A DNA stretch of 47,550 bases, from IMG/VR virus record IMGVR_UViG_2534681704_000008, one strand, 5' to 3'. This document shows, in pieces, positions 2,085-46,254 of the stretch (positions within the stretch are counted from its first letter, which is position 1; every line of letters starts with the position of its first letter). The position numbers were made by a program, and so were the translations under genes. The notes beneath the pieces were generated by a model that did not search any database, had not been told where the DNA came from, and was given only the letters and a program-made list of their open reading frames with translations. Source of the DNA: a virus. Lineage: Duplodnaviria > Heunggongvirae > Uroviricota > Caudoviricetes.

Positions 2085-2998
2085 AAATTTCTCTGGTCGT
2101 TCCTGTCTTCAACGAAGAAGACGCGATACCTATTTTTTATAAAACTGTTCGGGAATTTGAAGGACTTCAGCAACATGAAGTTGAGATAGTCTTCATAAAT
2201 GACGGAAGCAAAGACGCGACAGAATCAATCATAAACACGCTGGCTATTGCCGATCCGCTTATTGTTCCTCTGTCTTTCACGCGCAACTTTGGCAAGGAAT
2301 CAGCACTCTTTGCCGGCCTTGACCATGCAACTGGTGAAGCGGTTATCCCTATTGACGTTGACTTGCAAGATCCCATAGAAGTCATCCCGCACCTGATTGA
2401 GAAGTGGCAGCAGGGTTCGGATATGGTTCTGGCTAAGCGCTCTGACCGCTCAACTGATAGCCGACTGAAGCGTAAGTCAGCTGAGTGGTTTTATAAGCTT
2501 CACAACAAAATAAGCAACCCGAAAATTGAAGAGAACGTAGGCGATTTCCGGCTTATGTCTCGCGAAGTTGTTGAAAACATCAAGCTCATGCCAGAACGTA
2601 ATCTATTCATGAAAGGTATCTTGAGCTGGGTTGGCGGCAGAGCAGACGTTGTTGAATACGCTCGCGCAGAACGCGTTGCGGGAAATACAAAATTCAACGG
2701 GTGGAAACTGTGGAACCTTGCCCTTGAGGGTATAACTAGCTTCTCAACATTCCCTCTGCGCGTATGGACGTACATAGGGCTTATCGTTGCTGGCATAGCG
2801 TTTATCTACGGCGCATGGATGATCATCGATACGCTGGCATTTGGTAATGCTGTGCGCGGATATCCATCTCTACTTGTCTCCATCCTGTTCCTTGGGGGAG
2901 TGCAACTTATTGGGATTGGCGTTCTTGGTGAATATATTGGAAGAATATATATCGAGTCTAAAAAGCGACCTAAATACATTCTAAGGAAGATGAAATGA
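2081..2998 (+). CDS. gtrB: GtrB bactoprenol glucosyltransferase (GT2)
   Basis: 305 aa; N-terminal GT2 signature ([11 protein letters not shown]...DGSKD...DVDLQDP) and C-terminal TM helices. Confidence 0.9.
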
Positions 2999-4557
2999 GT
3001 TCGCGTGTTGGATTAATATCAATCTTTATTGTGTTTTTATTGGTGTTAATAATTCAATTGTTAACACCATTTCACTCTGATGATTTCGGTTTTTATCTGA
3101 AAGGGTACTCATTCGAGACCCTGCATCATGTTTACATGACGTGGAGCGGAAGGCTGTTCTCCGATTTTACTGGAAGCCTTGTAATGTCCATCAAGGACAA
3201 AACAATAATTTCATTTATAAATGCATGTGCTTTTACATCGTTAATTGTCGTTTTAACAAAGCTACCGCTTGAAAACAAAAACAACTGGCCTGTTTTTATT
3301 CTGTTGTTCATGCTTTATTGGATCGACAACCCAAGTTTGAGCCAGACAAGCTTCTGGGTAGTAGGCTCTGCTAACTATCTATGGACTAATCTCTTAGCCT
3401 ATTCATGGTTATATCTTTACTTCAGGTATGGTTCAACTTCAGATGTAAAAATGAAAGCTTTGTTATTGCTAATGGCTTTCATAACAGGCATGACAACAGA
3501 GAATCTAAGCACTTCAATATTCGGTGTTTTGTTCCTCTACAATGCCTTAAATTTCTATATAGAACGAAAAATAAACTGGTTATCTGTTTCTCAAATGCTG
3601 TTGCTGCTTGCAGGTGTTGGGGTATTACTACTTGCTCCAGGTAACTTTGTGAGGTCATCATCTTGTTGTTTTGATTTTTATTCCCAGCCTCTGATTACAA
3701 GGATAACAAATCATTTCCCCGGTAAGTTCATATCAGAAATGATGGAGTACAAGCATGTTATTGTTCTAACTGTCATTTCAATTGGTTATGGGCTATATAA
3801 AAAGAAAGATATGACGTTACCATTACTTTTTGTAATTGGTGCAATAGCTTCAAACGCCATGCTGTTCGCCTCACCAACAAATACAGGTAGAGTGTTAAAC
3901 ACGGGGTTGGTAATGATGTTGGCATCTCTTTCCTTTGCTTTGAGTTCAATATCTGAATTCAAGGCAAGTAAATTTCTAATTTATGTTGCATCTATTTTAT
4001 CTTTGGTTCTTTTTGCTCAGTCGTATGCTAACAATTACCAAAGCATAAAGAGTGTGTTTGCTCAGGATCAGATCAGAACGCAGATGATAAAAGACGGGTA
4101 TGATGCCATTCCATACTTTTATCAAGGAAGCATAGAGAAAGAATCAGATAAGCTTGACATATTTTTTAATTCAAGCGCTATTTCTAAATTTTATGGAGCA
4201 ACAAAGGATGTTGGCTTAATCGATCTTCCTTTTGATTATTCTTTGATGACGCAACAAAAGACAAATATTAATGATAGCTATTTCATTAACTTCAGGAAGC
4301 TTGACGACGTATTCCTTTTTGAAGTATCAAACCCTGATGTTAAATTTGAAAACTATATTTTGTTTTTCAGATTAACAATGGATGATGGTAGCGTTGAGAA
4401 TCATGATTTCATACCTGTTCTACGTAATTATAAAGGACATTTGTATTTGAACTCATGGAAAGTTGATACAAAAGGTAAAGAAATAAAGTTATTCGAGATT
4501 GGATTCTACGATCCGGCACTTAAGAAAAATGTAAGGTCTGTCAGCGTCCCTATGTAA
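2995..4557 (+). CDS. gtrC: GtrC-type serotype-specific O-antigen glucosyltransferase (polytopic membrane protein)
   Basis: 520 aa, many TM segments, low GC, immediately downstream of and overlapping gtrAB. Confidence 0.65.
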
Positions 4558-16538: not shown

Positions 16539-16711
16539 CAGCCCTCCTTCCAACGCAGCACCTTCGCGCCAGTCGCCCGGATGCGCGGGCAGTTGATGAA
16601 CCACTCGCCATCCGATTTCACGTAGCCGGTAGTCTCCCGCCCGGTGTCGGTCATCACCCAGACGCGGGTGAACGAATGCGGCAGTCCGTGCTTAACTGAT
16701 TTGTACGTCAT
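16538..16711 (-). CDS. Small hypothetical protein absent from the ORF track
   Basis: 57 aa (MTYKSVKHGLPHSF...); ATGA overlap with the upstream gene stop and TGATG overlap with the downstream start. Confidence 0.45.
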   Translation of the reverse strand: MTYKSVKHGLPHSFTRVWVMTDTGRETTGYVKSDGEWFINCPRIRATGAKVLRWKEG

Positions 16712-17091
16712 CAGCATCCCCCGACCACCATGAACAGGCCGACGCTGTTACCGGCGCTGATAGGCAGTTCACCAGTGCAACCGCTGGTATCAAGCCGGGC
16801 CAGCGAGTCGCGCAGCCAGGTAATGCTGTCGTCGCCATATTCAAACGAGCGGGAAGCGCCAGACGGCGCACCCTGCGATTTGATGCGGCGCGCGCCGGAC
16901 GACGTAGCCATAAGCGAGGCGGCGTACATCAGGATCAGCTTCGCGGTGCAGTCGTCATAACCCGCGCCATCTAGGCACGGGATAATCTTGTTCACCACGC
17001 AGAGGATCGGCGTAAGCAAGGCATCAGGTATGGCGTACCCCAACTCAGCGAGGAAGCCTTTAATTTCTTCTGGCGTAAGCGGGGTTGCCAT
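16711..17091 (-). CDS. Head-tail adaptor / head completion protein
   Basis: 126 aa, position after the capsid genes. Confidence 0.5.
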   Translation of the reverse strand: MATPLTPEEIKGFLAELGYAIPDALLTPILCVVNKIIPCLDGAGYDDCTAKLILMYAASLMATSSGARRIKSQGAPSGASRSFEYGDDSITWLRDSLARLDTSGCTGELPISAGNSVGLFMVVGGC

Positions 17092-17093
17092 GG

Positions 17094-17417
17094 TTATTTC
17101 ACCTTTTTCTTCAGCTCGTCGATTTGTTTATGAGCCTCGTCGAGGTCAGCCTGCAGCTTTGCGTTGTCAGCGGTCAGCGACTCAACTTTGCCATTGGCCT
17201 CGTCGAGGTCAGCCTGCAACTTTTGCACGTCGGCAGGTGTCGCCACTTCCAGGACCTGGTCGCTTACCGGGATCGCTTTTCCTGCCAGCCACAGCGGGAG
17301 AGTCTCGCCTTTGTAGACTTCACCCTTTTTCAGTTCGTGGCTGTCGTGGGTGAGCAGCCAATTTTGTTCTTTACCAGCCATACGGCCTCCGGAAAAAAGA
17401 TGGGGCCTGAGCCCCAT
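17094..17417 (-). CDS. Hypothetical head protein with internal repeat
   Basis: 107 aa; KLQADLDEA occurs twice, encoded by a 22-bp direct repeat; GGAGG RBS. Confidence 0.5.
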   Translation of the reverse strand: MGLRPHLFSGGRMAGKEQNWLLTHDSHELKKGEVYKGETLPLWLAGKAIPVSDQVLEVATPADVQKLQADLDEANGKVESLTADNAKLQADLDEAHKQIDELKKKVK

Positions 17418-17426
17418 GAATTATGC
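17399..17426 (-). terminator. Intrinsic terminator/attenuator after the major capsid gene
   Basis: atggggc-ctga-gccccat hairpin followed on the minus strand by cttttttcc. Confidence 0.55.
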
Positions 17427-18452
17427 TTTGGTCAGCTGGGCGTAACCGGCCTGGCCATTCGCGTCGTGTTTGAACTGCGGCGCCGCAGCAGCCAGCACGG
17501 AGAAGACATAATCGTCTTCCGGATTCTGGCGAGCTTTCGGGCGCATGGTCATCGGCATGCCGTTGAGGATCTGCACAACGTCAGGACGCTTAACCACACC
17601 CAGCAGTTCGTTTTGCGGTACCTTCGAAGCCGGAACCAGCGCCGCAACACCAGGGATTTCCATGATGCGGGACAGGATGGTCTTCGGATAGTTTGCCGCG
17701 TAGTCGTTCACAGACGCGTAGAACCAGTCTTTGTAATTCACGTAGATGGTTACCGGGCCGTAGAAATTCTTGGACTGCAGCAGCCCAATCAGCGCGGAGA
17801 TGGCCCCGACCCACTGAGCGCCGGTTGCGCCGTTCAGGTCAAGACCATGCGTGCCGGTTGCGCGGTTTGGCGCAGTGCGCAGACCGTAAATGGTCGCGCC
17901 CCCGACGTTGATGTTTGGATCGCCGTTAAGCACCATGTCTTCCAGCTTCTCAGCCACTTTACGCTGATGGTTGGAGATGGCGTCGCTGTCCAGAGAGTAG
18001 CCTTCAGTCTGCGCTGCCAGCATCTGGCGCCAGCCAAAAGTCAGTTCACTGTCGATGATAGGCAGCGGCGTGCCTTCGTAATCCATGACAGGCTGATCGC
18101 CCTTCGCCTTGCCGCGGCCATCCAGGCTGATGTTTGCATCACCGGAATCTGACAGAGTCATGAAGTAGTGAACGATCTTACCGAGTGCCATCGGGCGGGA
18201 AACGCTGGCGGCCAGGTCGTTAAACACTGACAGCACGTCGCGCTGAACGGTAATCGCAGAGCGGTCCCATTCCCCCCAGACATCTTTCGGCAGCACGGAG
18301 GCGTTACCGACGAGGTCATCAAACGCAATGAACTGACCGCCAGCGTCGTTGACTGCAAAGCCATGCTGTGCAGCCATATTGCGCTGCATCATGTCCCAGC
18401 GACGGCGCGCGTTGATGATCAGCCCCTGCTGTTGTGGAGTAAACTTTAACAT
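17421..18452 (-). CDS. Major capsid protein
   Basis: 343 aa, AAGGAAA RBS, position between decoration-like and connector genes. Confidence 0.7.
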
Positions 18453-18463: not shown

Positions 18464-18898
18464 TTATGCCTTGGCGTACGGAGTGGAGAGGATCACCACG
18501 TCGGCGAAACCTTCCGCCGCCAGAGTGCGCCCTGCTTTTTCGTCGAACGTAGCGACGACCTGGTTGCCTGTTGCGGCCGCTTTGAATACGCCGCCGGTAC
18601 CGATTGTCAGCTCTTGGCCTACCGTATAGGCCGCCGCTGCCAGGCGAACGTTGTATTCCTGCTCACCTTCAACGCGGTACGCCACGCCGGTTTCATTGGC
18701 TGCGTATGCGGTGGTGATTGCCTGGCCGATGAAACGACGGTTTCCGAGGATGAGCCAGCGGCCGGTAGTATCAGCGGCTGCTGCGAGCTTGCCTGATGCA
18801 ACCTTCACTGCCACGCCAGGGTTAAGCGCCGCAGCCACAGGCAGGTTGATGGTTTCCGGCTCACGCTCGACCGGGCCACGATAGATGACGTTAGCCAT
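18464..18898 (-). CDS. Head decoration-like protein
   Basis: 145 aa from MANVIYRGP (AGGAGA RBS); Ala/Gly/Thr-rich; between scaffold/protease and capsid genes. Confidence 0.45.
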
Positions 18899-20292
18899 TA
18901 TTTTTTCTCCTGATCGATGCCAGCGTTGAGGTCGTAGTCTTTCCACTGGTCGTTTTCAGAATTGACCAACTGGAATGATGGATTCAGCGGAGTGCTGGTC
19001 TGGCACTGTGAATACATGTCGTTCAGCGCTTCGCCTGAAAGCGAGTTGATCGCTGCTTCGGTCATGAACGAGAATTTCGCTTTAACAGCGTCACGTTTGG
19101 TTTTCAGGTCGCTCTCAGCGTTCGCCTGCAGTTGGGTTTCCAGCTTGCCCAACTTTTCATTCAGCGGGGTGAGTGCCGCATTAACGGCCGCGGTGATCAC
19201 GTCAGAGTTAATTTGAGCCTGGCCCGGGTCGCCGCCCCCCTCTTTCTTCTGCATCTGCTGGTTGTAGGCATCCCAGACCTGATCGTCGGTCAGCCCCTCG
19301 GTTTTAACGCCTGCGGCATTGAGCGCGGCGATCATCTTCTCTTTCATCGGGTTTGTTTCTCCGTTGGTTTTGACTTCGTACTCAGTTGGTTTGCGCACGA
19401 CTTCTACTGGATCGCCGACAAGCGTTACGACCTTGTCAGAGATGAGGTACTTCTGGTCAAAGAGCTTCGGCTTGGCATTTTCGCCATCCTCTTCGTAAAC
19501 GAAATGGTCAGGCCAGACGCTGACGACATAGCGCCACTTTTTGTCGTCCTGCTTGATGGACATGCGCAGCGCCTGGTAGATGTCGTCGAAGGACATCTCT
19601 GAGGCGTTGCTGATGAAGAACTTCACTTTGTTCCACCAGCCGTCTTTCATGCTGTTGGCGGCATCGATGAGGCTCGTCGATTCAACATCAGCCTCCTGCC
19701 CGTCAGCGTTGACGAACATGCCGACGCCTTCATCAGGAGTACCGGCGCCAGGCTCGTCGAGCAGGATCGCGATGTGGTCGAACTGCATGTTGTGAGCGAC
19801 CCAGGAGTATTTCTTCTGCTTCGACTCACCTGCCTTTTGCTCTTTGTTCAGCAGCAGACCTGTAGAAACATGAATCGGGTCGGCGTTGTTTCCGGAAATC
19901 ATGTCGTCCAGGCGCTGAATAAGGCGCTTACCGTCAGGCTTGGTGTCAGCCACAGCCTTATTGACGTAAACGTCCATCACGACCTTGTCGTTGGCCTTGC
20001 TGACGTTCTGAGCCCACGCTCCGGCGTAGTAATCATTGACAGCCTGCGGGTCGTTGGCGCTGACGTATTTGCCGTTCACCATCGGGTGGCCGATCGGCAT
20101 TAACTTGCGCTCCATCGTCTGGTAGCTGTTGTTAATCTCCTCCGCCGGGTACAGGCCGCCATTCATCACGATGTCATCGACGATCGGGACCGCACCACGA
20201 ATGACGTAGTGTTCCTGGCCGTTGATTGTGGTCGTTGAGATGTTGGAAGCGTTGATGGCGAGGGATTTAACGTGGATGCTGGATAGCTTCAC
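18898..20292 (-). CDS. Prohead protease / scaffolding-like protein
   Basis: 464 aa, GTG start with GAGGA RBS; acidic C-terminal coiled-coil region typical of scaffolds. Confidence 0.45.
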
Positions 20293-32446: not shown

Positions 32447-33136
32447 TCACACCATCCCGTTCGACTTGTTTCGGTTGTACTTCGCCAGCAGCAGCTGGAT
32501 CGGCGTCGGACCGTGCTCGGCAGCCGGTGCTGCAATTGCCCGGCGTACCGGCGGCACAGGCTTACCCTCGGTGACGCGCTTCTCCCACATGTCCAGCAAA
32601 TCGCCTGCCTCGCGTGCCAGCTCACCATGCGTTAACTGGCGCTCAGTGCTGCGGTGGCGCAATTCTACGCAAATGTGGTACATGACCGGCTGCGACCATG
32701 GAAATTGCTCGCTGGAGGTGAATTCGAACGAACGGTTACGCCAGTCCCAGTATTCGGCGATCACCTGGTCAACGTTGATTCCTAGCGCCCCGCCACTCTG
32801 TTTGCACCAGGCGACGAACTGGCCCGGCGACGGCAGGAATGGGCGCTCCTGGCGGCGGGCAATGCGCATACCGGCATCGACTTGCGCCATTGAGTGGATC
32901 CCGTTCTCCTGAAACGCCAGCAGCCACTGACGGCGGAATTCGTTCAGGTCGTCCTGGGTGCGGAAGTTCGCCATGCTGGCCGGGAACGCGGCACGCAGTT
33001 CGTTGAACAGCTTGTTGAATACCTGCGCCACCTGCTCTACTGGCGCCCGCTCCTGGTACTGATCTGGCAGGTTATGGGCCATGCGGCTCATCTGCTCGCG
33101 GTCATGGTTACGCATCTGCTCTGCAAGAGATTTCAT
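32447..33136 (-). CDS. P: Replication protein P (helicase loader)
   Basis: 229 aa; RPFLPSPGQFVAWC and FDREQMSRMAHNLPDQY closely resemble lambda P. Confidence 0.85.
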   Translation of the reverse strand: MKSLAEQMRNHDREQMSRMAHNLPDQYQERAPVEQVAQVFNKLFNELRAAFPASMANFRTQDDLNEFRRQWLLAFQENGIHSMAQVDAGMRIARRQERPFLPSPGQFVAWCKQSGGALGINVDQVIAEYWDWRNRSFEFTSSEQFPWSQPVMYHICVELRHRSTERQLTHGELAREAGDLLDMWEKRVTEGKPVPPVRRAIAAPAAEHGPTPIQLLLAKYNRNKSNGMV

Positions 33137-34098
33137 CGGATCACCCCATAGGCCCAGTCAGTGTTGTTGAAGTCCAGTTCCTGCTTGACGGCGCGCTGCT
33201 CACCACCAGCGCTGCGCTGCATCGTCAGCTTGTCCCACTGCTTACGCAGGCTTTCCGGGCTCAGGATGTTGGTCTGCCAGAAGTGGTGTTTGCTGGCCCA
33301 GTCATACAGCGCGCAGATATCCTGGTGCGACCGGTTATCTATCTGTCGCATCAGGCGAACGGTGTTAGACCAGGAGGTCATGTCCGGGGCTTTGCAGGTT
33401 GGGTTAATCAGCTTCACCCTTGTGGAAATCCACTGGGCGGTTTTTAGGTCTTCAGCCGATCCCCACTTCGCACCGGATGGTGTGTAGATCGCAGCTTCAG
33501 GATGAGCTGATAAAAATTTCTTCAGGCGTGCGTCTGAGGATTCGCCAGAATTCTCGGACGAAGATCTTTTAATGTTTTTATTGTTGTTATTACATTGTTG
33601 TTCATGATTCTCGGTGAAACGCTCGGATAAATGCGCGCAGTTATGCGCGGCATCACCTTCCGAAGCCGCACCATCACTGGCTTCGCCATGCTCGGCATTA
33701 AGCGCGGAGATATGCGCGGTGAAACGCTCGGGTGGATTGTCCATTTTTTGAGCATATTCAGCGTAATTTGTGATGGTTATCACAGAGCCTTTTCGCTTCT
33801 CTCCGGAGCGGGAAATCATTCCTTCACGCTCGAAAACATCAAGCATCCTGTCGACGGCGTGGCGACTGCATGGCTTCCCTTCCCTGTCGCATAAATTCAG
33901 CCCGAGATCGGCTGAGGTGGTGACCAGTTGTCCGGTTTGCAGCGGCCATTGGCGCCCCTTGAAGTTTGCCGTGTATGGCTGGCGGGCAGCACACAGCAGC
34001 AGGTTTTCCCACAGCGTGCGCAGGAAGACGTCCTTCGACCAGGTTTGCTTAAGAACACTCCGGTACAACGGGATGAATCCGGTTTTCTGGTTCTCCAT
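33133..34098 (-). CDS. O: Replication initiator O
   Basis: 321 aa from MENQKTGFIPLYR (ATG 34098, AGGAGC RBS; the ORF-track start at 34155 is GTG); contains ori repeats and an Asn-rich AT-rich linker. Confidence 0.75.
   Translation of the reverse strand: MENQKTGFIPLYRSVLKQTWSKDVFLRTLWENLLLCAARQPYTANFKGRQWPLQTGQLVTTSADLGLNLCDREGKPCSRHAVDRMLDVFEREGMISRSGEKRKGSVITITNYAEYAQKMDNPPERFTAHISALNAEHGEASDGAASEGDAAHNCAHLSERFTENHEQQCNNNNKNIKRSSSENSGESSDARLKKFLSAHPEAAIYTPSGAKWGSAEDLKTAQWISTRVKLINPTCKAPDMTSWSNTVRLMRQIDNRSHQDICALYDWASKHHFWQTNILSPESLRKQWDKLTMQRSAGGEQRAVKQELDFNNTDWAYGVIR
33550..33740. repeat. Putative replication origin inside O (iteron-like repeats plus AT-rich tract)
   Basis: GGTGAAACGCTCGG at 33612-33625 and 33717-33730; (A/T)ATGCGCGG three times; adjacent AT-rich tract 33551-33600. 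Confidence 0.55.
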
Positions 34099-34283
34099 CC
34101 GGTTGCTCCTGGCGGCTGAGTGCGCCGCGAAATTAGCGTAAGCGACGTTCGACACAGTTAAACCTCCTGCGCCTGGCGTTTTGGATTAGCGTTTGTCATA
34201 ATGACCTCGCAATTGACTGACGTTTGTTGCACCAGAAAGTCGGTTCTGTTCGCGCAGACCGGCTTTCGCCATTTCTGTATTTC

Positions 34284-34778
34284 TCACATAACCCCCAGCA
34301 TTGATGTAACCATCGTCATCAGTGGCCCTACCTGCTCCGGCATGAGGCGGAACAGCGAAGCTATACCCTCGCTTACCTCTTTCAGCTTCTGATGCTCTGG
34401 AGCGTCCAGCAGCACAGCCTGTTTAGCCTCTGCGAGTTCTTTCTCGGCTTCAGCCAGGCGAGACATTTTGCAATCGGCACCGATCAGGCGAGTGCGATAC
34501 TCAACCGGCAGCACGGCCATGATTGCTGGCGTCAGCTGGCGCACGTTCTCGCGGTACTGCTCGGAGTCGAAACGGTTGTCCAGAAAGCGGAACAGCTTCT
34601 GGCGGGCCCGGCTGATGTCTTCCGGGAAGCTGATAGCGGTCCCGCCCTGCTCCCGGTATTCGTTGATGATCAGCGCCGAAACGACGTCCTGATTGTCCAG
34701 CGCCGACGACCATGCCCGGACCGCATCGCGGATCTTTTCGTGGTCCGGCGCCGCCTTAGGTTGAGCGCGGTTTATCAT
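34284..34778 (-). CDS. YdaT-like protein
   Basis: 164 aa from MINRAQPK; EYREQGG and LTPAIMAVLPVEYRTRL resemble E. coli Rac YdaT. Confidence 0.6.
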   Translation of the reverse strand: MINRAQPKAAPDHEKIRDAVRAWSSALDNQDVVSALIINEYREQGGTAISFPEDISRARQKLFRFLDNRFDSEQYRENVRQLTPAIMAVLPVEYRTRLIGADCKMSRLAEAEKELAEAKQAVLLDAPEHQKLKEVSEGIASLFRLMPEQVGPLMTMVTSMLGVM

Positions 34779-34843
34779 CGCTCCCGGGTGTATTCCGGTA
34801 TTGTGTTGATACGCAAGTGAATGCATTGCTTTCCCTTTCGTGG

Positions 34844-35077
34844 TTAGGCCGCAGTATCACGCGGCGATGCGAATACCAGGCTTTCTTTGAGGACCGGAGC
34901 CTGACGGTGAAAATTCTTCGTGCCTTTCTCGATAGCAGATGCCATTTCTGGAGATGCCCGGCGATTTCCGTAGGCGATCTGGTCCAGGTAACCTGGCGTC
35001 GTGTTAGCCAACTTTGCGAGCTGCGCCCATTCGTCGGTAGTGGCGGCCTTGCGCCAGCGGTGTAGTTCAGTGCTCAT
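34844..35077 (-). CDS. Cro-like repressor (YdaS/Cro HTH family)
   Basis: 77 aa, divergent from cI across the operator region. Confidence 0.7.
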   Translation of the reverse strand: MSTELHRWRKAATTDEWAQLAKLANTTPGYLDQIAYGNRRASPEMASAIEKGTKNFHRQAPVLKESLVFASPRDTAA

Positions 35078-35109
35078 TGTTGTCTCCGGGTGAGTCGTTT
35101 GATTTGGAG

Positions 35110-35174
35110 TTTAGCGTTATGCTAAATACTACGCAAGCATCATTTAGCAATTTGCACATTTATCATTTTGCTAA
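35110..35174. promoter_or_regulatory. OR operator cluster between cro and cI
   Basis: 17-bp palindrome TTTAGCgttatGCTAAA (35110-35126) plus weaker copies at about 35143-35159 and 35158-35174. Confidence 0.6.
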
Positions 35175-35193
35175 AAGAAGTAACAATGCAGGG

Positions 35194-35871
35194 ATGGAAA
35201 ATAAAGAAATCAGAAAAGCCAACCTGGAAGCGCTGTATGAGAAGCGCCAGCACGAGTCTGGAATGACCAAGGCACAGTTCGCCGAGCTCATCGAGACAAG
35301 TCCGGCTGCGCTTAGCCAGCTACTGGGACCAAACCCTCATCGCAATATCGGCGATAAGATGGCTCGCAAAATTGAATCTGCGCTTGATCTGCCTTTTGGC
35401 TGGATGGATGTTTTACACGCCAGTGAAGAACCTTCGAACGTTGCATTTCGAGGACTGAACGAGACAAAAGGAAGTTATCCTGTAATCAGCTGGGTAAGTG
35501 CGGGGCAATGGATGGAAGCTGTAGAACCTTATCACCGAAGAGCGATTGATCGCTGGTATGACACTACCGTTGTCTGCTCAGACGATTCATTCTGGCTGGA
35601 CGTTAAAGGGGATTCTATGACCTCCCCGGCCGGGCTGAGCATTCCTGAGGGAGCGGCTATTTTAGTTGATCCTGAAATCGAGCCACGCAATGGGAAGTTG
35701 GTTGTAGCGAAGCTTGAAGGCGATAACGAAGCGACCTTTAAGAAGCTTGTAATTGATGCCGGCAGACGCTTCCTTAAGCCACTTAACCCCGCATATCCAA
35801 TGATAGAGGTTAATGGCAACTGCAAAATTATCGGCGTTGTTGTTGATGCGAAGATACTAAACATCCCATAA
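35194..35871 (+). CDS. cI: CI repressor (HTH plus S24 LexA-like autopeptidase)
   Basis: 225 aa from MENKEIRK; intact catalytic Ser (GDSM) and Lys (FKKL). Confidence 0.85.
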   Translation: MENKEIRKANLEALYEKRQHESGMTKAQFAELIETSPAALSQLLGPNPHRNIGDKMARKIESALDLPFGWMDVLHASEEPSNVAFRGLNETKGSYPVISWVSAGQWMEAVEPYHRRAIDRWYDTTVVCSDDSFWLDVKGDSMTSPAGLSIPEGAAILVDPEIEPRNGKLVVAKLEGDNEATFKKLVIDAGRRFLKPLNPAYPMIEVNGNCKIIGVVVDAKILNIP

Positions 35872-35891
35872 CCTAACGCTAAACCCTTCAA

Positions 35892-35916
35892 GCCCGCCGT
35901 CGTGCGGGTTTTTTTA
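35892..35916 (+). terminator. Intrinsic terminator after cI
   Basis: cccgc-cgtcgt-gcggg hairpin followed by ttttttt. Confidence 0.6.
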
Positions 35917-35954
35917 TGCCCTAAATTCCTCCCCAGTAAATTTTAATCGCTTAT

Positions 35955-36028
35955 TAATCAATACGCTAAATAAAATCCATCAATAATTTAGCATTTTGCT
36001 ATTGCGCATAATTTAGCATCACGCTAAA
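35955..36028. promoter_or_regulatory. OL operator cluster
   Basis: Perfect TTTAGCatcacGCTAAA at 36012-36028 and weaker copies at 35987-36003 and 35955-35971. Confidence 0.6.
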
Positions 36029-36362
36029 TTTACCTCATCGAAACGAAACATCGACAGCTGAGCGAATTTAGCCAGCGGCGGACAGCAAGTCGCCTGCTTT
36101 TTAACAACATGCAAAGTCGGAACAGCACTCGGTAATCCTGTTTAGACCCCAACGCACAAAATGCGGCGTATCACCGGCGGCGAACCGGTCGGTGAGAAGG
36201 CTACCCCCTCGCGAGAGCGATAAAGGCGTGGGAACGGGCAACACTGGCGGGATGAGAGGTGCGAAGCGCAAACAGATTTATTCCAGTCCATTCGAAGTTG
36301 AGTGGGCTGGGCTGAATTAAGCATTACTCCCGCATCAGCGGGTAACGACAGAGGGTAAGACG

Positions 36363-36611
36363 ATGGCCATGCTCAGACTTTCTCCTGAAGAAGCGGTTAA
36401 ACAAATGACTGCATCGGGATTGATGGATGAATTGGATGCATTGATCGACAAATACAAAATCGACAAGGCAGCGCGCAGGTTATCGGGTGACAGAACGTGG
36501 CTCGTCGCTTCCGAAAGCATTTACGGGGAATTTTGCGGAGACACGTTAACACATGCCGTTCATATCTTCGTTTTGAGTTATGAGGCAAACAAAAATTCAT
36601 TGTTCGTCTGA
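36363..36611 (+). CDS. First early-left gene, hypothetical (no Arg-rich N-like motif)
   Basis: 82 aa, GAGGG RBS; first ORF after a ~320-nt leader from OL. Confidence 0.5.
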   Translation: MAMLRLSPEEAVKQMTASGLMDELDALIDKYKIDKAARRLSGDRTWLVASESIYGEFCGDTLTHAVHIFVLSYEANKNSLFV

Positions 36612-36770
36612 AGCCGCTTAACCAGCGGCTTTTTTCATACCTCAGTCGCTTCACCGAGGCGGCTTAGTTATGACAACCGGCGGCCATCCACCGCCCATTT
36701 AAACACTGAATAAATGCGTTGAAGTCTTGTATTAACCGTTCCGTTCGCCGCGATAAGGCCAAGAGGATTT

Positions 36771-37040
36771 ATGACAATTGATTTTGAAGTGAAAGCTACA
36801 GGTATTGATGTTTCAACAAGTGGTTACCGCGACCACGTCAATTTAGAAGTTCGTGGCGTGGAACTCTCAGACCTTGTCTCTGAAATTGAAGGGAAAGCGC
36901 TCTTTCAGGAAATCGATCTTGATGACTACATAGACTGGGCTGAGGCCGCTGGTCACATCGAAGACATTCTTGAACGGCTTGATGTAGATGAAGTTATCGC
37001 ATGGTTGCGCAGCAACGGGCACCTGGAGACTGAATCATGA
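36771..37040 (+). CDS. Small acidic hypothetical protein
   Basis: 89 aa, AAGAGGA RBS. Confidence 0.5.
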   Translation: MTIDFEVKATGIDVSTSGYRDHVNLEVRGVELSDLVSEIEGKALFQEIDLDDYIDWAEAAGHIEDILERLDVDEVIAWLRSNGHLETES

Positions 37041-37195
37041 CAGTCACCCACAACGACAAGCAGTACACCGTAAAAAAACTCAACGATAACGAGTGGCAGC
37101 TGACGTCGGTATCGAACCCGCGTGAAAAGCTGACGATGAACCGCTGGCACATGAAGCTGGCTGGGCTCCTGGAACAGGTTGAGGTGAAGGTATGA
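37037..37195 (+). CDS. Small hypothetical protein absent from the ORF track
   Basis: 52 aa (MTVTHNDKQYTVKKLNDNEWQ...), ATGA overlaps at both ends. Confidence 0.45.
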   Translation: MTVTHNDKQYTVKKLNDNEWQLTSVSNPREKLTMNRWHMKLAGLLEQVEVKV

Positions 37196-37398
37196 TTGGA
37201 ATGCACTACGGCACCGCATCAGTGCCACGCAGCGAGGTTTTACCGGGCACAATGCTGCAACACCACGGAAAAACTTATCGCGCCTCTGCGAACGTTGAGA
37301 AAGGCCTGTACGCCTTCAACATATTCGAAAAAACCATCATCAAAAGTGATTCCGTCGTTGTGCTGCTGAATGAGCGCGGCGAGCCGATGGTTCACTGA
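37192..37398 (+). CDS. Small hypothetical protein
   Basis: 68 aa, tiled in the operon. Confidence 0.45.
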   Translation: MIGMHYGTASVPRSEVLPGTMLQHHGKTYRASANVEKGLYAFNIFEKTIIKSDSVVVLLNERGEPMVH

Positions 37399-37408
37399 GG
37401 CCGCTGAT

Positions 37409-37843
37409 ATGGAAATCAAAACTCCAGCAAATCCAAGCAAAAAGGCGACGGCCAGGGTAAAGAATCCTCTTCCCGCGCCAACTAATTGTCACCTGTGCTC
37501 TGGTTCAGTGCGAATCGGCACTCATGAAGAAGTCTATGGACGCGACTTCAGTGAATGGCCGTATGTCTATCTGTGCGAATGCTGCGGAGCATACGTCGGG
37601 CTTCATCCTTTCACAGCGATACCTCTCGGGACTCTAGCAGACAAGCCAACCCGCGACGCGCGGAAGAGCTGCAAGATGCCTTTTGAACGGATCTGGAAGT
37701 CCGGAGCCATGACGCGCACTGAGGCATACCAATGGCTGGCTGGCAAGATGGGTATACCTGTTCATGAATGCCACTTCGGCTGGTTCACCGTAGAGCAGTG
37801 CCAGGCTGCAATGCATCACTGTAACGACTGGCTAAACCGCTAA
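37409..37843 (+). CDS. Cys/His-rich zinc-finger-like early protein
   Basis: 144 aa from MEIKTPANP; CHLCSG...CECCGAY...CHFGW...HHCNDW clusters. Confidence 0.5.
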   Translation: MEIKTPANPSKKATARVKNPLPAPTNCHLCSGSVRIGTHEEVYGRDFSEWPYVYLCECCGAYVGLHPFTAIPLGTLADKPTRDARKSCKMPFERIWKSGAMTRTEAYQWLAGKMGIPVHECHFGWFTVEQCQAAMHHCNDWLNR

Positions 37844-37914
37844 CCACCCTATTCAACGATCGGCCTGGCAATTCGCGGGCGGCCTCTGCACATCCAAATT
37901 TCAGGAGTTAAGCC

Positions 37915-38199
37915 ATGAACGCATACCTCACTTACGACCGCATCGAAGATCGGCGGTGGGTTGAGCAGCAACTCACCGACGAGAAAGAGAAGTGGATCGG
38001 CGACCGGGCGCAGCAAATTATCGACATGATGCCAAAAGAGCCGTCCGGCCTCTTCCACTTCACGGTCCCGATTGACTCCAGCCCGTACGAAGGACTTCGC
38101 AGCGATAAAGCTGGCGAGGCCTACAACGATTTCATTTCGGCAGTTGCTTACGCCCAGGCGGAATACGACTGGGAACACCGTACCGGCTGCCCGTTTTAA
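37915..38199 (+). CDS. Hypothetical early protein
   Basis: 94 aa, CAGGAG RBS. Confidence 0.5.
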   Translation: MNAYLTYDRIEDRRWVEQQLTDEKEKWIGDRAQQIIDMMPKEPSGLFHFTVPIDSSPYEGLRSDKAGEAYNDFISAVAYAQAEYDWEHRTGCPF

Positions 38200-38217
38200 T
38201 TTTTGAGGGGATTAACG

Positions 38218-39063
38218 ATGGCAAACGAATTAACAATCACAGCGACGTCGCTTCAGGAGATAGGCGTCGACGTCTCCACCTGGAGCGCGCTGAAGAACAG
38301 CATCTACCCTGGCGCCAAAGACGAATCGGTAATGATGGCGCTTGACTACTGCAGAGCCCGCCAGCTGGATCCGTTGCTCAAACCTGTCCACCTCGTTCCG
38401 ATGTACGTCAAAGACTCGAAAACAGGTAAAGGCGACTGGCGAGACGTCGTCATGCCTGGCATCGGGCTTTACCGCATTCAGGCAGACCGTTCTGGCGATT
38501 ATGCCGGTGCCCGCGAACCAGAGTTCGGGCCCGACGTAACTCAAACGCTTACTGGTGTCGAGGTGACCTTCCCTCAGTGGTGCAAATACACCGTCTACAA
38601 GCGCATGCCCAGTGGAGAGATCGTCGAGTTCAGCGCCAAAGAATACTGGATTGAGAACTACGCCACCGGCGGACGCGACACCACGGCGCCGAACGCGATG
38701 TGGAAAAAGCGCCCATACGGACAGCTGGCGAAATGCGCGGAAGCCCAGGCTTTGCGTAAGGCATGGCCTGAGATTGGACAGCAGCCTACCGCCGAAGAAA
38801 TGGAAGGCAAATCACTGGAGGTAGATATCCGTGACGTCACGCCGCGCAACACCACAGAAGCGCTTCCACCAGCAGCAAGCGAAGAAACGCTTCAGGCGAT
38901 AACCGATCTCTTAAAAACTCTGGATAAAGACTGGGAGAAAGACTTCCTACCACTGTGCAGCGACATCTTCAAACGGCAAATTCTTGAGGCGTCAGAACTC
39001 ACTGAAGAAGAGGCTCAGAAAGGGTTTGGCTTCCTTCAGAAAAGGGCTAAGGCGGCAGCATGA
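38218..39063 (+). CDS. recT: RecT single-strand annealing recombinase
   Basis: 281 aa from MANELTIT (GAGGGG RBS); paired with the downstream exonuclease. Confidence 0.8.
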
Positions 39064-39740
39064 CACCCGAAATTATCCTGGCCCGGACCGGTATTGACGT
39101 TACCACTATCCAACAGGGCGATGAGGCGTGGCACCGGCTGCGCCTCGGCGTTATCACCGCCTCTGAAGTGCACAACGTCATCGCCAAGCCAAGATCGGGA
39201 AAGAAGTGGACAGACATGAAAATGTCCTACTTCCACACGCTGCTCGCCGAGGTATGCACCGGCGTGGCGCCAGAGGTTAACGCCAAGGCGCTGGCCTGGG
39301 GCAAGCAGTACGAGGAAGACGCCCGCACGCTCTTCGAGTTCACCACTGACGTGAAAGTCACGGAGTCTCCGATCCTGTTCCGTGACGAGAGCATGCGCAC
39401 AGCGTGCTCCCCTGACGGTCTGTGCAGTAACGGGTTCGGTCTTGAGCTTAAATGCCCTTTCACCTCTCGCGACTTCATGAAATTTCGGCTTGGCGGTTTC
39501 GAAGCCATCAAGTCTGCGTACATGGCCCAGGTGCAGTACAGCATGTGGGTGACCGGGAAAGATGCCTGGTTTTTTGCTAACTACGACCCGCGCATGAAGC
39601 GCGAAGGTATTCACCACGTCGTCGTTGAGCGGGATCCGCAATACATGACCGATTTCAACGAAATGGTGCCGGAGTTCATCGAGAAGATGGACGAGGCGCT
39701 GGCGGAGATCGGCTTCACGTTCGGGGAGCAGTGGAAATGA
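39060..39740 (+). CDS. Lambda-type 5'-3' exonuclease (YqaJ-like)
   Basis: 226 aa; ATGA overlap with recT. Confidence 0.75.
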
Positions 39741-40165
39741 AACGCACACCCTTCTATCGCCGGCCCGGGCGAACCGGGCAATTCTCCGGCCTCCGTGAGC
39801 GCGTTATCTGGATGATTCAGACGCGCGGCCGCCCGGTAACAGGCAGCGAAATCGCTGAGAAGTTTGGCGTAACGCTCATCGAGTTTAACCGGGTCGCCAA
39901 CGGCATCACCCGCGGCACCGGACAGATAGCACAGATTGTTGAGTCGGAAAAATGGCTCAACGAGGACGGCATCTGCGACCGGGCATTCGACCTGATCACG
40001 AAGCCAAAAGTAGTAACACCTCAGGGTAAATCGCGGTTGTTCACCCGGCGCGCCATAGAGCAATCGAAGGAAGGCAGACGGCAGGAGTGCATTGCCCGCG
40101 CCGCCCGCCGTAGCCGCCTGATTGCTCAGGGCCTCTACATCGACGAAATGGAGTCAGTGCTATGA
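39737..40165 (+). CDS. Hypothetical protein, possibly winged-helix
   Basis: 142 aa from MKRTPFYRR; ATGA overlap with exo stop. Confidence 0.45.
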
Positions 40166-40329
40166 AAGCGTGGTCTCTCGAAGAGCTGGCGCTGCTGTGG
40201 CGACACTCAAACGCTGAAGTCGCAGAGATTACCGGCCGCAGTATTGATGAGGTCGGAGATAAGCGGCTGCAAACCAATATTGAGCGTAATGGCTGGGATG
40301 TAAACGATCCGGAACGGGAGGATGCATGA
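40162..40329 (+). CDS. Small hypothetical protein absent from the ORF track
   Basis: 55 aa ([25 protein letters not shown]...), ATGA overlaps at both ends. Confidence 0.45.
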   Translation: MKAWSLEELALLWRHSNAEVAEITGRSIDEVGDKRLQTNIERNGWDVNDPEREDA

Positions 40330-41387
40330 GCAAAGTAGGCGATTATTTCTTTGAGTTCCCGGCGTCGCGCGGCACGCAGGGTTGTACGGTGACTTACATG
40401 ATCACAGCACCTGCCCGCGCACTGACGCGCATACTTGCCTCCGACAATCACGGCAGCACGCTCGATCGTTCTCAACGCGAAATTAACCAGGCGCGAGTGA
40501 AGAAGTTTTACCAGTACCTCGTCAATGCATACCAAAATAAAGAGCCCTTCATCATCCCGCCACTGGTCGGCAACTGCGACGCGGATATTGAGTTTGAAGA
40601 GTTCGGCAATACGAATGTGGGCGTCGCACGCTTCCCTATGGATGCAGTGATCAAGCTGTTCGACGGCCAGCACCGCGCAGCCGGATTAGCTGAGTTCTGC
40701 CGGACTTACGGAGAGCCAATCAGCATCCCGCTGATGCTAACCCATAATCTCCCACTGAAGGCACGCCAGCAGTTCTTCTCCGATATCAATAACAACGTCT
40801 CGAAACCTTCCGCTGCGATCAACATGGCCTATGACGGGCGTAATGAAGTTGCACAGGGGATGGTGACGTTCCTGTCTCAGCACGACACCTTCGCAGAGGT
40901 GACAGACTTCGAGCACAACGTCGTACCGGCGAAAAGTAAGTTGTGGGTGAGCTTCAAGGCGCTTAGCGACGCGACGGCCAAGTTTGCCAACGCGGGCGGC
41001 AAGCCGCTGGAAATGGGCGACATCGAATCCATCTGGGAGGCCTGGTTGGCCCTGACGCAGATCGAAGCGATTCGCCACGGCACCAGCCAGGCAGACTACA
41101 AGCGCGACTACATTCAGTTCCACGCAGTGATGATTAACGCCTTCGGCTATGCCGTTCAGCGGCTGATGGCTGACCACTCAATCGTAGATATCGTCCAGAT
41201 GATTGAGGAACTGGCGAGCAGTGCGGGCTCCTCTGAGATGGAAGACTTCTTCCTGATTTCCCGGTGGGGTGGTGTCTGCGTGAATGCCGAAAAAGACCGT
41301 CCAACGGTCATTGCCTCCGTTCCGGCGCAGAAATCTGCTGCAGACCGTCTCGTCAAAGTTATCCTGGCGAAAAGCCTTGAGGAGTAG
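40326..41387 (+). CDS. DGQHR-domain protein (ParB/DndB-like superfamily)
   Basis: 353 aa with an exact FDGQHRAAG motif. Confidence 0.7.
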   Translation: MSKVGDYFFEFPASRGTQGCTVTYMITAPARALTRILASDNHGSTLDRSQREINQARVKKFYQYLVNAYQNKEPFIIPPLVGNCDADIEFEEFGNTNVGVARFPMDAVIKLFDGQHRAAGLAEFCRTYGEPISIPLMLTHNLPLKARQQFFSDINNNVSKPSAAINMAYDGRNEVAQGMVTFLSQHDTFAEVTDFEHNVVPAKSKLWVSFKALSDATAKFANAGGKPLEMGDIESIWEAWLALTQIEAIRHGTSQADYKRDYIQFHAVMINAFGYAVQRLMADHSIVDIVQMIEELASSAGSSEMEDFFLISRWGGVCVNAEKDRPTVIASVPAQKSAADRLVKVILAKSLEE

Positions 41388-41389
41388 TT

Positions 41390-41845
41390 ATGACAATGCA
41401 GATGCACTCAATGCCCTGGCCTGAATCTCAGGCCATCTTTTTGTCAAAAACCTACCTTTACATGAACATGGATGAGCTGTGCAAAAGGTTACAACGCACC
41501 AAAGCGTCTATCCAGATGAAGGCCAGCAGCATGGGTCTTTACCGCTGTGGGAAATTAACCATCGACGATCTGCAGCTGATTGAAGCCCTGCTTGATGCCG
41601 GTCTTGAGCATGCGGTTATTGCCAGAAAGTTCGAACTCTCCAAGCCTCAGCTAATGAGGGTTCTGGAAACGGGAGCCTTTCATTGCGATATCTGCGGCAC
41701 GTTCTCCGCGTCTATGCGTTCCTCTTACTGGAAATTCGACGGAGAGCCGCAAAGGACTTATAGCTGCTGTCCGGAGTGTTGCCGGGCGATGGTTGAAAGC
41801 TTTAACGCAGGACACGACGGGCCGTTGCTGGCACGCAGACGGTAG
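41390..41845 (+). CDS. Hypothetical protein with C-terminal Cys-rich zinc-ribbon-like motif
   Basis: 151 aa; HCDICGTF...SCCPECC. Confidence 0.45.
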   Translation: MTMQMHSMPWPESQAIFLSKTYLYMNMDELCKRLQRTKASIQMKASSMGLYRCGKLTIDDLQLIEALLDAGLEHAVIARKFELSKPQLMRVLETGAFHCDICGTFSASMRSSYWKFDGEPQRTYSCCPECCRAMVESFNAGHDGPLLARRR

Positions 41846-41850
41846 GAGGC

Positions 41851-42510
41851 ATGACCGAAAAATACGCTCTTATCTACGCAGATCCTCCCTGGTCTTACGG
41901 CAACACCATCAGCAATGGCGCCGCTGCCGACCACTATTCCACCATGAAGCTAATCGACATCAAACGCCTGCCAGTCTGGGAACTTGCCGCCGAAAACGCT
42001 GTGCTGGCGATGTGGTACACCGGCACGCATAACCAGGAGGCGATCGAACTGGCCGAGGCCTGGGGCTTTACCGTTCGCACTATGAAAGGCTTTACCTGGG
42101 TGAAGCTGAACCAGAACGCCGAACTGCGCATCAACAAGGCGCTGGCTGAGGGTGAGGTCATCGACTTTTACGACTTCCTCGATCTGCTTAACGCCGAGAC
42201 TCGCATGAATGGCGGCAACCACACCCGGGCCAATACTGAAGACCTGCTGATAGCTACCCGCGGCGCCGGGCTGGAACGTAAGCACGCCGGGATTAAGCAG
42301 GTGGTGTACAGCCCACTCGGCGCGCACAGCGAAAAGCCGTGGGAAGTTCGGCACCGGCTGGAGCTGCTTTATGGAGATGTGCCGCGCATTGAGCTATTTA
42401 GCCGCAGCGCGGCGCCGGGCTGGGATCACTGGGGGAATCAGTGCGCCACCGCCGCGGTGGAACTGCTTCCCGGCTGCGCCATCGATGTTGTGAAAACGGA
42501 GGCCGCATGA
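41851..42510 (+). CDS. N6-adenine DNA methyltransferase, MT-A70-like
   Basis: 219 aa with the DPPW catalytic motif (YADPPWSYGN) near the N-terminus. Confidence 0.75.
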   Translation: MTEKYALIYADPPWSYGNTISNGAAADHYSTMKLIDIKRLPVWELAAENAVLAMWYTGTHNQEAIELAEAWGFTVRTMKGFTWVKLNQNAELRINKALAEGEVIDFYDFLDLLNAETRMNGGNHTRANTEDLLIATRGAGLERKHAGIKQVVYSPLGAHSEKPWEVRHRLELLYGDVPRIELFSRSAAPGWDHWGNQCATAAVELLPGCAIDVVKTEAA

Positions 42511-43556
42511 CGCCAGCAGCTTATTACAACGAAATCGACCCGTTCGCTGCTCAGTGGCTGCGTAACCTGATCGCCGGCGGTCATATCGCCCCGGGCGAAG
42601 TTGATGAAAGGAGTATTGAAGATGTCACACCTGACGATCTGCGAGGATTCACGCAGTGCCACTTCTTCGCCGGAATTGGCGTATGGTCTCATTCCCTGCG
42701 GCTCGCCGGATGGCCTGACGATAAACCAGTCTGGACCGGCTCCTGCCCGTGCCAGCCTTTCAGCGCGGCAGGCAAAGGAGATGGGTTTGCTGACGAGCGG
42801 CACCTTTGGCCCCACTTCTTCCACCTCATCAGCGAGCGCAGACCTGAGCATGTCTTTGGCGAACAGGTTGCAAGCGGTAACGCAAACACATGGTTCGACC
42901 TTGTACAAGCTGACCTGGAAGGAATGGAATACGCCTTCGGGCTTGTGCCGTTTGCGGCAGCGGGCGTCGGTGCTCCGCACATCAGAGAGCGGGCCTACTG
43001 GGTGGCCTACGCCAACAGCCAGATCGACGACCGGCGCAGGCACATCGGGGCGGATGGGAGGAATGAACATTCAGACTGCAGTAACCCTGACAGGTTGGCC
43101 GACACCCACAACGATCGACAACAATCAGGTTGCTGGCCAAGCTGCGGCTGCAAATGCACCAAAGCGGGGATCCACACTGGGCGGAGCATCAAGGCTTGCA
43201 GGATGGGTGACGCCAACCTCACGCGACTGGAAGGACTCGGCGGGAATGACTGCGCAGCGGGATGGCAAGGAGCGACTGGACCAGTTGCCTCGCCAGGCGT
43301 ACACATGCGGGCCCTTGAGGTTAACGGTTTTTGGCGAGATGCGGACTGGCTCTTTTGTAGAGATGGAAAATGGCGTCCAGTTGAACCCGGCACATTCCCG
43401 CTGGTTGATGGGGCTGCCGCGCGCCTGGTGCGAGTCGAGCCCGGGGTGGCAAGAGTGGCAAGCAGCAACCGCGTCGGCCGCCTGAAAGGGTACGGCAACG
43501 CCATAAACGCACAGGCTGCGGCTGAATTTATCCGGGCCTATATGGAGGGTTTATGA
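42507..43556 (+). CDS. DNA cytosine-5 methyltransferase (Dcm-like); reading frame possibly disrupted
   Basis: Motifs I (FFAGIGVW), IV (SCPCQPFSAAGK), VI (VFGEQV), VIII (HIRERAYW) and X-like (RLKGYGNAINAQAAAEFI) in the annotated frame; the +1 frame also looks coding in the middle. Confidence 0.6.
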   Translation: MTPAAYYNEIDPFAAQWLRNLIAGGHIAPGEVDERSIEDVTPDDLRGFTQCHFFAGIGVWSHSLRLAGWPDDKPVWTGSCPCQPFSAAGKGDGFADERHLWPHFFHLISERRPEHVFGEQVASGNANTWFDLVQADLEGMEYAFGLVPFAAAGVGAPHIRERAYWVAYANSQIDDRRRHIGADGRNEHSDCSNPDRLADTHNDRQQSGCWPSCGCKCTKAGIHTGRSIKACRMGDANLTRLEGLGGNDCAAGWQGATGPVASPGVHMRALEVNGFWRDADWLFCRDGKWRPVEPGTFPLVDGAAARLVRVEPGVARVASSNRVGRLKGYGNAINAQAAAEFIRAYMEGL

Positions 43557-44492: not shown

Positions 44493-44583
44493 AGGAACTA
44501 ATCACCCAGGAGCTTAAGGCTCCTTTTTTATTGCTGGCGTTCACATTCAACCGAATTAACCGACAGTTCCGGGAGCATTGACC

Positions 44584-44802: not shown

Positions 44803-44848
44803 TAATGAAATTCGGGTTGCGGTCGCCACTCCGCTTCCCTGGCGCTTA

Positions 44849-45955: not shown

Positions 45956-45963
45956 GAGCGACC

Positions 45964-46209: not shown

Positions 46210-46254
46210 GGATCCGTTTATGCTTAGCGGGCTCTTGGACGTCAGGAGGGAATA

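Follow-up and report, generated by a model that had tools for sequence, protein, structure and literature searches.

In-frame repeats that leave the heptads of a coiled coil intact, and that expand, contract, and homogenize, are a known phenomenon. Here we describe one in an uncharacterized family of phage head-module genes, within a window of 47,550 nucleotides (the whole stretch of DNA analyzed; IMG/VR virus record IMGVR_UViG_2534681704_000008; Duplodnaviria; Heunggongvirae; Uroviricota; Caudoviricetes). The head genes of phage lambda are ordered D-E-FI-FII-Z-U-V. The gene order of the window parallels this order and places a small gene in the FI slot, between the major capsid gene, which it directly follows, and the head-tail joining genes. 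According to the summary in PMC4493119 of work by Popovic et al. (2012), the lambda FI product (gpFI) binds to the major head protein and assists DNA-terminase complexes in engaging proheads. This report concerns the small gene of the window and a direct repeat inside it that a first-pass annotation had noted from the bare sequence.

A direct repeat within a predicted coiled coil

Across the 47.5-kb window, the 22-mer GCCTCGTCGAGGTCAGCCTGCA matches exactly in two places (17134-17155 and 17197-17218), and allowing up to 3 mismatches revealed no third match. Two matches were reached in 0 of 100 dinucleotide-preserving shuffles. The first-pass annotation had reported a 22-bp direct repeat inside a head-module gene with a spacing of 66 bp; the repeat is there in two exact copies, but these begin 63 bp apart and leave 41 bp between them. 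This distance equals 21 codons, or three heptads. Read on the minus strand, each copy codes for part of the motif KLQADLDEA, which is indeed duplicated, as had been proposed. The first motif (M1) occupies residues 54 to 62 (17196-17222, with the exact 22-mer match at 17197-17218) and the second (M2) residues 75 to 83 (17133-17159, with the match at 17134-17155) of a 95-amino-acid (aa) protein.

The 63-bp unit KLQADLDEANGKVESLTADNA (17160-17222, minus strand; 21 codons, three heptads) was delimited by unit-by-unit parsing of homologous coding sequences (CDSs) and by the length classes described below, and GCCTCGTCGAGGTCAGCCTGCA is the portion of this unit that recurs where the next block begins. 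Tandem Repeats Finder, run on the region and on the whole window, did not call the repeat, because only the 22- to 27-nt motif is doubled and not the full 63-bp unit (∼1.4 units). A short palindrome within the motif, CCTCGxCGAGG, was dismissed as a signal since it is not conserved in other lineages (e.g., L048 and L051). Searches of the window with Rfam (gathering thresholds) and a tRNA scan gave no matches; thus, an RNA element is unsupported.

Both motif copies lie in a single long helix, residues 49 to 94 (17100-17237, minus strand), which is continuous in the AlphaFold2 model with a predicted local distance difference test score (pLDDT) of about 90. As read from the sequence, heptad position a is occupied by V52, L59, V66, N73, L80, I87, and V94 and position d by L55, A62, L69, L76, A83, and L90, with a pattern unbroken from V52 to V94. 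From this pattern, residues 49 to 94 are predicted to form a canonical coiled coil, which agrees with the coiled-coil-like character that the motif had been given in the first-pass annotation. Beta-branched residues at a, leucine at d, and a single asparagine at a are typical of parallel dimers, and by such general rules the helix would be expected to pair as a parallel dimer.

Copy number varies among homologues in exact steps of 21 residues

A search of 5.8 billion proteins yielded 130 relatives, and length counts were taken from the 120 that were listed. CDSs were taken from 78 IMG/VR loci, one Citrobacter genome, and one Escherichia coli prophage, and a genome-contig scan returned only one locus. 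Counted as protein clusters among the 120 listed, the length classes were 74 aa (n = 20), 95 aa (n = 54), and 116 or 117 aa (n = 4); a 137-aa class, found on two viral contigs, was added by the IMG/VR loci and genome set. The steps between classes are exact multiples of 21 residues. Proteins of 74, 95, 116, and 137 aa carry one, two, three, and four KLQADLDEA-type motifs, respectively, and their genes carry none, one, two, and three 63-bp units. The sole other indel within the helix was found in one 102-aa cluster (P0025), which is longer by 7 aa, or one heptad. The alignment of homologues for repeat-number variation, which had been suggested as a check, therefore finds a repeat that is neither absent nor invariant.

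Parsing the DNA into units showed that gains and losses correspond precisely to the 63-bp unit, with the repeat as its boundary. In the one-copy genes L053 and L057, one motif is left, and motif and spacer have been lost precisely. At the other end, L080, from the complete genome of E. coli M37H, has two identical 63-bp units, while L039, L040, and L042 have two or three, L040 and L042 with a 138-bp exact run at offset 63. These last three genes, with three or four motif copies, are 100% identical to the two-copy genes L028 and L033 over the N-terminal domain, the tail, and 360 bp upstream; the expansion in L080 is on a separate background, so expansions are found on at least two backgrounds. 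One-copy alleles show 0 or 1 difference from the nearest two-copy allele over 65 flanking residues, on at least seven backgrounds, and they bear the motif variant of their own background (KLQAELGEA in P0090 and KLQADLEEA in P0094 to P0098). Because the flanks of the variant alleles match those of two-copy alleles completely or almost completely, contraction and expansion have both recurred, and recently. It is important to note that this recurrence rests on nearest-neighbor comparison; a Fitch count (20 changes on an unweighted pair group method with arithmetic mean [UPGMA] tree of the 65 flanking residues) was inflated by ties. One three-copy protein, P0001, has 41 member sequences on 104 contigs and is widespread in Klebsiella pneumoniae.

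Six further clusters of 63 to 68 aa (P0099, P0101, and P0104 to P0107) have a frameshift just upstream, such that the first KLQADLDEA is read in the +1 frame (..SCRLTSTR..) and a short basic tail follows. These are mostly single metagenomic contigs and may stem either from sequencing errors or from genuine truncation.

The two copies evolve in concert

Divergent lineages keep an exact repeat of 26 to 29 nt with an altered sequence, among them AAGCTGCAGACGGAGCTGGATGAAGC (L048), AAGCTCCAGGAAGATCTGGATGCGGCG (L051), and AAGCTACAAACATCACTCGATGAGGC (L054). Across 27 distinct haplotype pairs, derived nucleotide states were found in both copies 48 times and in one copy 19 times, and there was no instance (0) of derived but discordant states. 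The changes common to both copies include synonymous ones (GAC to GAT, CTG to CTC, and CAG to CAA). In lineages where each copy shows 8 or 9 differences from the window over 27 nt, the two copies of the gene differ from each other at 0 or 1 nt, and the N-terminal domains of these lineages differ at 30 to 43 of 120 nt. Further, the identity between copies ends abruptly at the motif edge, with the 27th nucleotide usually different. We read this pattern as the mark left by gene conversion between the copies, or by repeated rounds of unequal exchange, and the process that would homogenize the copies is the same one that would yield the length variants.

Misalignment of the repeat probably drives length change

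The 22-bp repeat marks both ends of the 63-bp unit in the coiled-coil stalk, and it is likely, in our judgment, that its misalignment drives length change. The motif copies, identical over about 22 to 29 nt and 63 bp apart, would misalign in replication or recombination, through slipped-strand mispairing or short-homology annealing, and the unit would then be deleted (74 aa) or duplicated (116 and 137 aa), or one copy would be converted to the other. Because the unit is exactly three heptads, each product stays in frame and in coiled-coil register, with the length of the predicted helix shifted by about 31 Å per unit, and such variants do persist in nature. Also in the window are genes for a RecT/Bet-like annealing protein (38203-39063) and for an exonuclease (39060-39740), whose products could promote short-homology events. 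The earlier suggestion of a hotspot for slippage or length variation thus gains support from the varying copy number, the breakpoints in the repeat, and the recurrence of recent events. One point weighs against the account as given: it is from the products that a route, be it slippage, annealing, or conversion, has been deduced.

An alternative is that selection on the protein, along with codon preference, keeps the motifs identical because they act as two equivalent sites for binding or packing; the DNA repeat would then be a by-product rather than a substrate for recombination. The motif does stand at equivalent heptad positions in successive three-heptad blocks, as read from the sequence, and amino acid changes are usually doubled (KLQSDLDEA, KLQADLEEA, and KLQTELDEA each occur twice in their proteins). 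Still, lineage-specific synonymous changes are common to both copies, identity stops sharply at the motif edges, and the breakpoints of gain and loss fall exactly in the repeat on many backgrounds. Protein-level selection plus codon bias cannot account for this copy pattern, and we consider it a very improbable explanation. That the length classes are assembly artifacts, from collapse or expansion of repeats in short reads, has in its favor that many homologues come from short metagenomic contigs and that the three- and four-copy arrays hold perfect repeats of 75 to 138 bp, but it has next to no credibility given that the one- and two-copy forms have only a 22- to 29-nt repeat, far below read length, that a three-copy allele sits in a complete E. 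coli chromosome, that an identical three-copy protein was found on 104 contigs, and that every length class comes from several sources.

Gene model and a terminator-like hairpin after the capsid gene

The longest ATG-to-stop reading of the gene has 107 codons (17094-17417), and the first-pass annotation had accordingly described a 107-aa gene. The true start is almost certainly the ATG at 17381, which gives a protein of 95 aa (MAGKEQNW...KKKVK; 17094-17381, minus strand, with the stop TAA at 17094-17096). A GGAGG lies 4 nt upstream of this ATG. The ATG at 17417, on the other hand, is the first base of a terminator-like hairpin, 3 nt past the stop of the capsid gene. The 95-aa model was adopted because this hairpin is conserved, because homologues of 95 aa have the same MAGKEQ start, and because the E. 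coli copy was annotated by the Prokaryotic Genome Annotation Pipeline (PGAP) from MAGKE.

The intergenic region after the capsid gene (17382-17420, minus strand) was examined with a terminator scan. It contains the hairpin ATGGGGC-TCAG-GCCCCAT (17417-17400, minus strand), with a 7-bp stem of which 5 are G-C pairs and a 4-nt loop, followed by C and T6 (CTTTTTT; 17399-17393, minus strand) and by the Shine-Dalgarno sequence GGAGG (17390-17386, minus strand), which is conserved in relatives. Hairpin, T-run, and GGAGG are all kept in relatives from Enterobacterales, where most changes fall in the loop (TCAG, TAAG, TTCG, TCCG, and TGCG). The hairpin probably attenuates transcription downstream of the capsid gene, whose product is needed abundantly.

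Architecture of the protein family

The protein matches phrog_22246, of unknown function, over 95 of 95 positions (E = 6e-61), and its N-terminal domain (N-domain) by itself also matches phrog_13988, likewise of unknown function. Sequence searches of Pfam, NCBIfam, and PDB returned nothing above cutoff; the matches were generic ones to coiled-coil proteins, among them Sas-6, Phage_scaffold, prefoldin, and Lpp. The names "CwlO-like peptidoglycan hydrolase" and "RuvC/YqgF nuclease" that homologues carry in source databases were set aside as coiled-coil artifacts; the database matches of the protein are subthreshold and generic. PF27442, a precomputed label on several homologues, was absent from the Pfam scan of P0001.

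The N-domain comprises residues 1 to 48 (17238-17381, minus strand) and has 22 invariant columns across 24 diverse homologues. Conserved residues are W8, T11-H15, K18-G20, Y23, G25, L28-P29, W31-L32, G34-K35, E45-V46, and T48-P49, and the signature of this ∼48-residue domain can be written W-x-L-T-H-D-S-H-x-L-K-K-G-x-x-Y-x-G-x-x-L-P-x-W-L-x-G-K-A. AlphaFold2 predicts short strands at residues 6-10, 22-25, and 36-38/39 plus a short helix (pLDDT of 85 for the whole model). At the other end of the protein, a Lys-rich C-terminal tail, KKKVK (17097-17111, minus strand), has counterparts in nearly every family member, whatever the spacer. The family layout is thus constant: an N-domain, usually an (L/F)EVATP motif, a spacer, and a Lys-rich end. 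The family is small, with an HMMER scan of 1.84 billion cluster representatives for the N-domain returning 20 proteins at E ≤ 1e-3; one of these 20 matches, to a 1,065-aa repeat protein, was spurious. Many prophages of Klebsiella, Enterobacter, Citrobacter, E. coli, Dickeya, Pectobacterium, and Mannheimia carry a member.

The spacer itself differs among lineages. In Enterobacterales it consists of one to four coiled-coil units, and unrelated coiled coils take its place in Pantoea and others. In the Mannheimia prophage contigs L063 to L070 (CDS at about 2995-3270), the coiled coil is replaced by a perfect 9-bp microsatellite, GGCGAAACT, which encodes Gly-Glu-Thr (GET) and is present in 2, 5, 6, 9, 10, or 11 copies. 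(GET)n is a further spacer of hypervariable length within the family, independent of the coiled-coil one. The KpV2811 type, at 55 aa, has almost no spacer, and the N-domain is the only part of the window protein that the Mannheimia and KpV2811 relatives have in common with it. In L071, L072 (CDS at 3043-3333), and P0123, the coiled coil lies ahead of the conserved LEVATP motif and not after it; therefore, the position of the spacer is not fixed relative to the motif.

Phages that have a DUF7370 neighbor gene but another capsid type carry an 85-aa analogue, phrog_2288, in the same slot. In Klebsiella phage ST101-KPC2phi6.1 (L083:3890-4147, minus strand), this 85-aa protein has LEVATPG, (AEQ)4, and a KSKKAK tail. 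It is like the window protein in its slot, its LEVATPG, its short repeat spacer, and its basic tail, whereas its first ∼28 N-domain residues are not recognizably alike. Comparison by hhalign gave a probability of 50% (E = 1.6e-4). The analogue also has a weak match to phrog_2322, "head-tail connector" (E = 6e-4), and tblastn found it in 19 phage records, always over residues 1 to 60 only. With this phrog_2288 analogue excepted for the N-domain, the spacer-swapped lineages retain the N-domain, the LEVATP motif, and the basic tail. None of the three families, phrog_22246, phrog_13988, and phrog_2288, has a functional annotation.

Genomic context

The gene immediately upstream encodes the major capsid protein (DUF6260, phrog_771; 17421-18452, minus strand) and was always linked to the small gene. 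This capsid protein has an HK97 fold and is distantly related to the capsid proteins of Shigella phage Sf11 and phage TW1. Downstream, a DUF7370 gene (16711-17091, minus strand) has its ATG 2 nt past the stop of the small gene and is the next gene in most relatives. The order decoration, capsid, small gene, DUF7370, and phrog_797 was the same in every relative examined, from Enterobacterales to Pasteurellaceae, and in the window it continues with Neck1, tail terminator, and major tail genes. In KpV2811, the small gene stays beside the capsid gene and the operon ends there, with the connector genes elsewhere. Since the small gene is retained beside the capsid gene even in KpV2811, it travels with the capsid module, and comparison of the sequences suggests that the block of capsid, decoration, and small genes is exchanged as a module.

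A mosaic joint is seen at ∼17092-17100. Nucleotide similarity to genomes of the Enterobacter phage ENT1 and Klebsiella phage ST101-KPC2phi6.1 type spans the DUF7370 gene and mostly ends about 30 to 40 bp before the small-gene boundary, while a match to Klebsiella phage 2 LV-2017 reaches the boundary. Upstream of the decoration gene, a 464-aa protein (phrog_760, with a weak DUF2213 match; 18898-20292, minus strand) has a coiled-coil-rich C-terminal part and is probably a head-module protease/scaffold, which would make it less necessary for the 95-aa protein to act as a scaffold.

The window is from a lambdoid temperate phage. Positions 32447-47550 hold a lambdoid early region and integration genes, including P-like (32447-33136) and O-like (33133-34155) replication genes, a CII-like gene (34284-34826), a CI/UmuD-like repressor gene (35077-35871), two DNA methyltransferase genes (41851-43556), and an integrase gene that reaches the end of the window (46255-47550).

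Possible roles of the protein

We tentatively suggest, by analogy, that the protein works like gpFI, as a nonenzymatic accessory of head assembly or DNA packaging. The N-terminal beta domain would dock on the capsid protein, while DNA or terminase would be the partner of the Lys-rich tail; a spacer would hold the two parts at a distance. Its exact length would matter little, and length variation would be tolerated because a gpFI-like model leaves spacer length largely free. In addition to their shared slot, the window protein and lambda gpFI (PF14000; C-domain, PDB 2LSM) are alike in being small and in having a compact ∼50-residue domain, a helical or charged part, and a length-tolerant joint. 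The gpFI proteins P0136 to P0253 offer a small-scale parallel, as they range from 128 to 136 aa via 3-residue indels (DDT/DDTDDT) in an acidic hinge. In contrast to this acidic hinge, the spacer of the window protein is a predicted canonical coiled coil, and its tail is Lys-rich.

Several points weigh against a gpFI-like role. The order of the domains is reversed in the window protein relative to gpFI, and PF14000 was not matched in Pfam scans. Comparison by hhalign with the FI C-domain or with a 16-sequence FI alignment gave probabilities of 0.1 to 0.2%, although the FI profile was shallow, with the search for lambda FI homologues giving, among the matches listed, only sequences of at least 86% identity. 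Moreover, the regular, canonical heptads (Val or Ile at a, Leu at d, and a single Asn at a) make the coiled coil resemble a structured dimeric stalk more than a mere flexible hinge.

The main rival, doubtful in our view yet worth weighing, is that the protein is a virion component, either a capsid-surface fiber or a minor decoration protein, with the N-domain as anchor, an outward dimeric coiled-coil stalk, and a basic tip. Changes in repeat number would then tune its reach (toward the host capsule, for example, or toward other polyanions) and would be under selection, not neutral. The tight linkage to the capsid and decoration genes is consistent with such a role, a terminator-like attenuator after the capsid gene would suit a substoichiometric head protein, and the coiled coil is regular and rod-like. 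The presence of three unrelated repeat types at one spacer position across lineages and the wide occurrence of the three-copy allele (P0001) in Klebsiella pneumoniae point the same way. However, a separate decoration protein (phrog_766) is already encoded, and in the capsid structure of the distantly related Sf11, only capsid and decoration proteins were modeled in the capsid. A projecting stalk also seems not to be essential, given that some members, at 55 aa, are almost spacer-free.

A further and rather unlikely reading is that the spacer is a tunable ruler and not a neutral hinge, with mutable in-frame repeats recruited repeatedly at one position (63-bp coiled-coil units in Enterobacterales, 9-bp (GET)n in Mannheimia prophages, and 9-bp (AEQ)n in the phrog_2288 analogue). 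If so, the identical DNA copies would preserve a contingency-like locus, through which temperate phages could rapidly vary the distance from the capsid-bound domain to the basic tip, with effects on packaging or on interaction with the host surface. The more interesting question is why three types of mutable repeat came to occupy one spacer position across lineages.

Another reading considered is that the N-domain and helix imitate ribosomal protein bL9, specifically its N-terminal domain and connecting helix, and act on the ribosome. The predicted beta-beta-alpha-beta arrangement followed by a long exposed helix is similar, and bL9 structures were the top, though weak, structural neighbors of an N-domain-only model. 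We regard this as scarcely plausible, as all structural scores were below significance for a ∼45-residue domain, Pfam Ribosomal_L9_N was unmatched even at E ≤ 10 in ten family members, hhalign comparison with two bL9 sequences stayed below 2% probability, BLASTP gave no support for homology either, and the genomic context is entirely unlike that of bL9, with the invariable head-operon position pointing to a morphogenetic role. Membership in the phage scaffolding proteins (PF06810, phrog_530) is not supported by profile matches: PF06810 scored 20.1 bits against a cutoff of 35, and the phrog_530 match (E = 6.5e-5) covers only the coiled-coil part, where dozens of unrelated coiled-coil families score similarly. 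Profile comparisons support neither the gpFI nor the bL9 family, and we file the protein in neither. The gpFI-like tether is offered as a testable hypothesis for the gene that follows the capsid gene in such phages.

Comparison with known coiled-coil repeats

Taken by itself, the locus is a clear, though unexceptional, instance of length variation driven by a repeat and would not surprise a specialist. A homology of ∼25 nt is close to the shortest usually cited for efficient recombination in E. coli, and here a direct repeat of about that length appears to drive both copy-number change and concerted evolution within a phage structural gene. The analysis also yields a revised gene model (95 aa in place of 107), locates an attenuator-like hairpin downstream of the capsid gene, and describes how an unannotated family is built, namely, from a capsid-linked N-domain, a LEVATP motif, a basic tail, and a spacer of variable length. 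These prophages could be typed with the locus as a marker. A prior description of such a case in a phage head-module gene was not found in a literature search aimed at related phages and gpFI rather than at the repeat.

The closest parallels for the repeat are the known coiled-coil variable-number tandem repeats, which arise when short direct repeats slip or recombine unequally. As in those, the unit is a multiple both of 3 nt and of the heptad (63 nt, three heptads), near-identical alleles differ in copy number with breakpoints in the repeat, and the copies are homogenized and evolve in concert. The window-type array differs from them in being minimal, with about 1.4 units in the common allele, and in its identity tract of just 22 to 29 nt.
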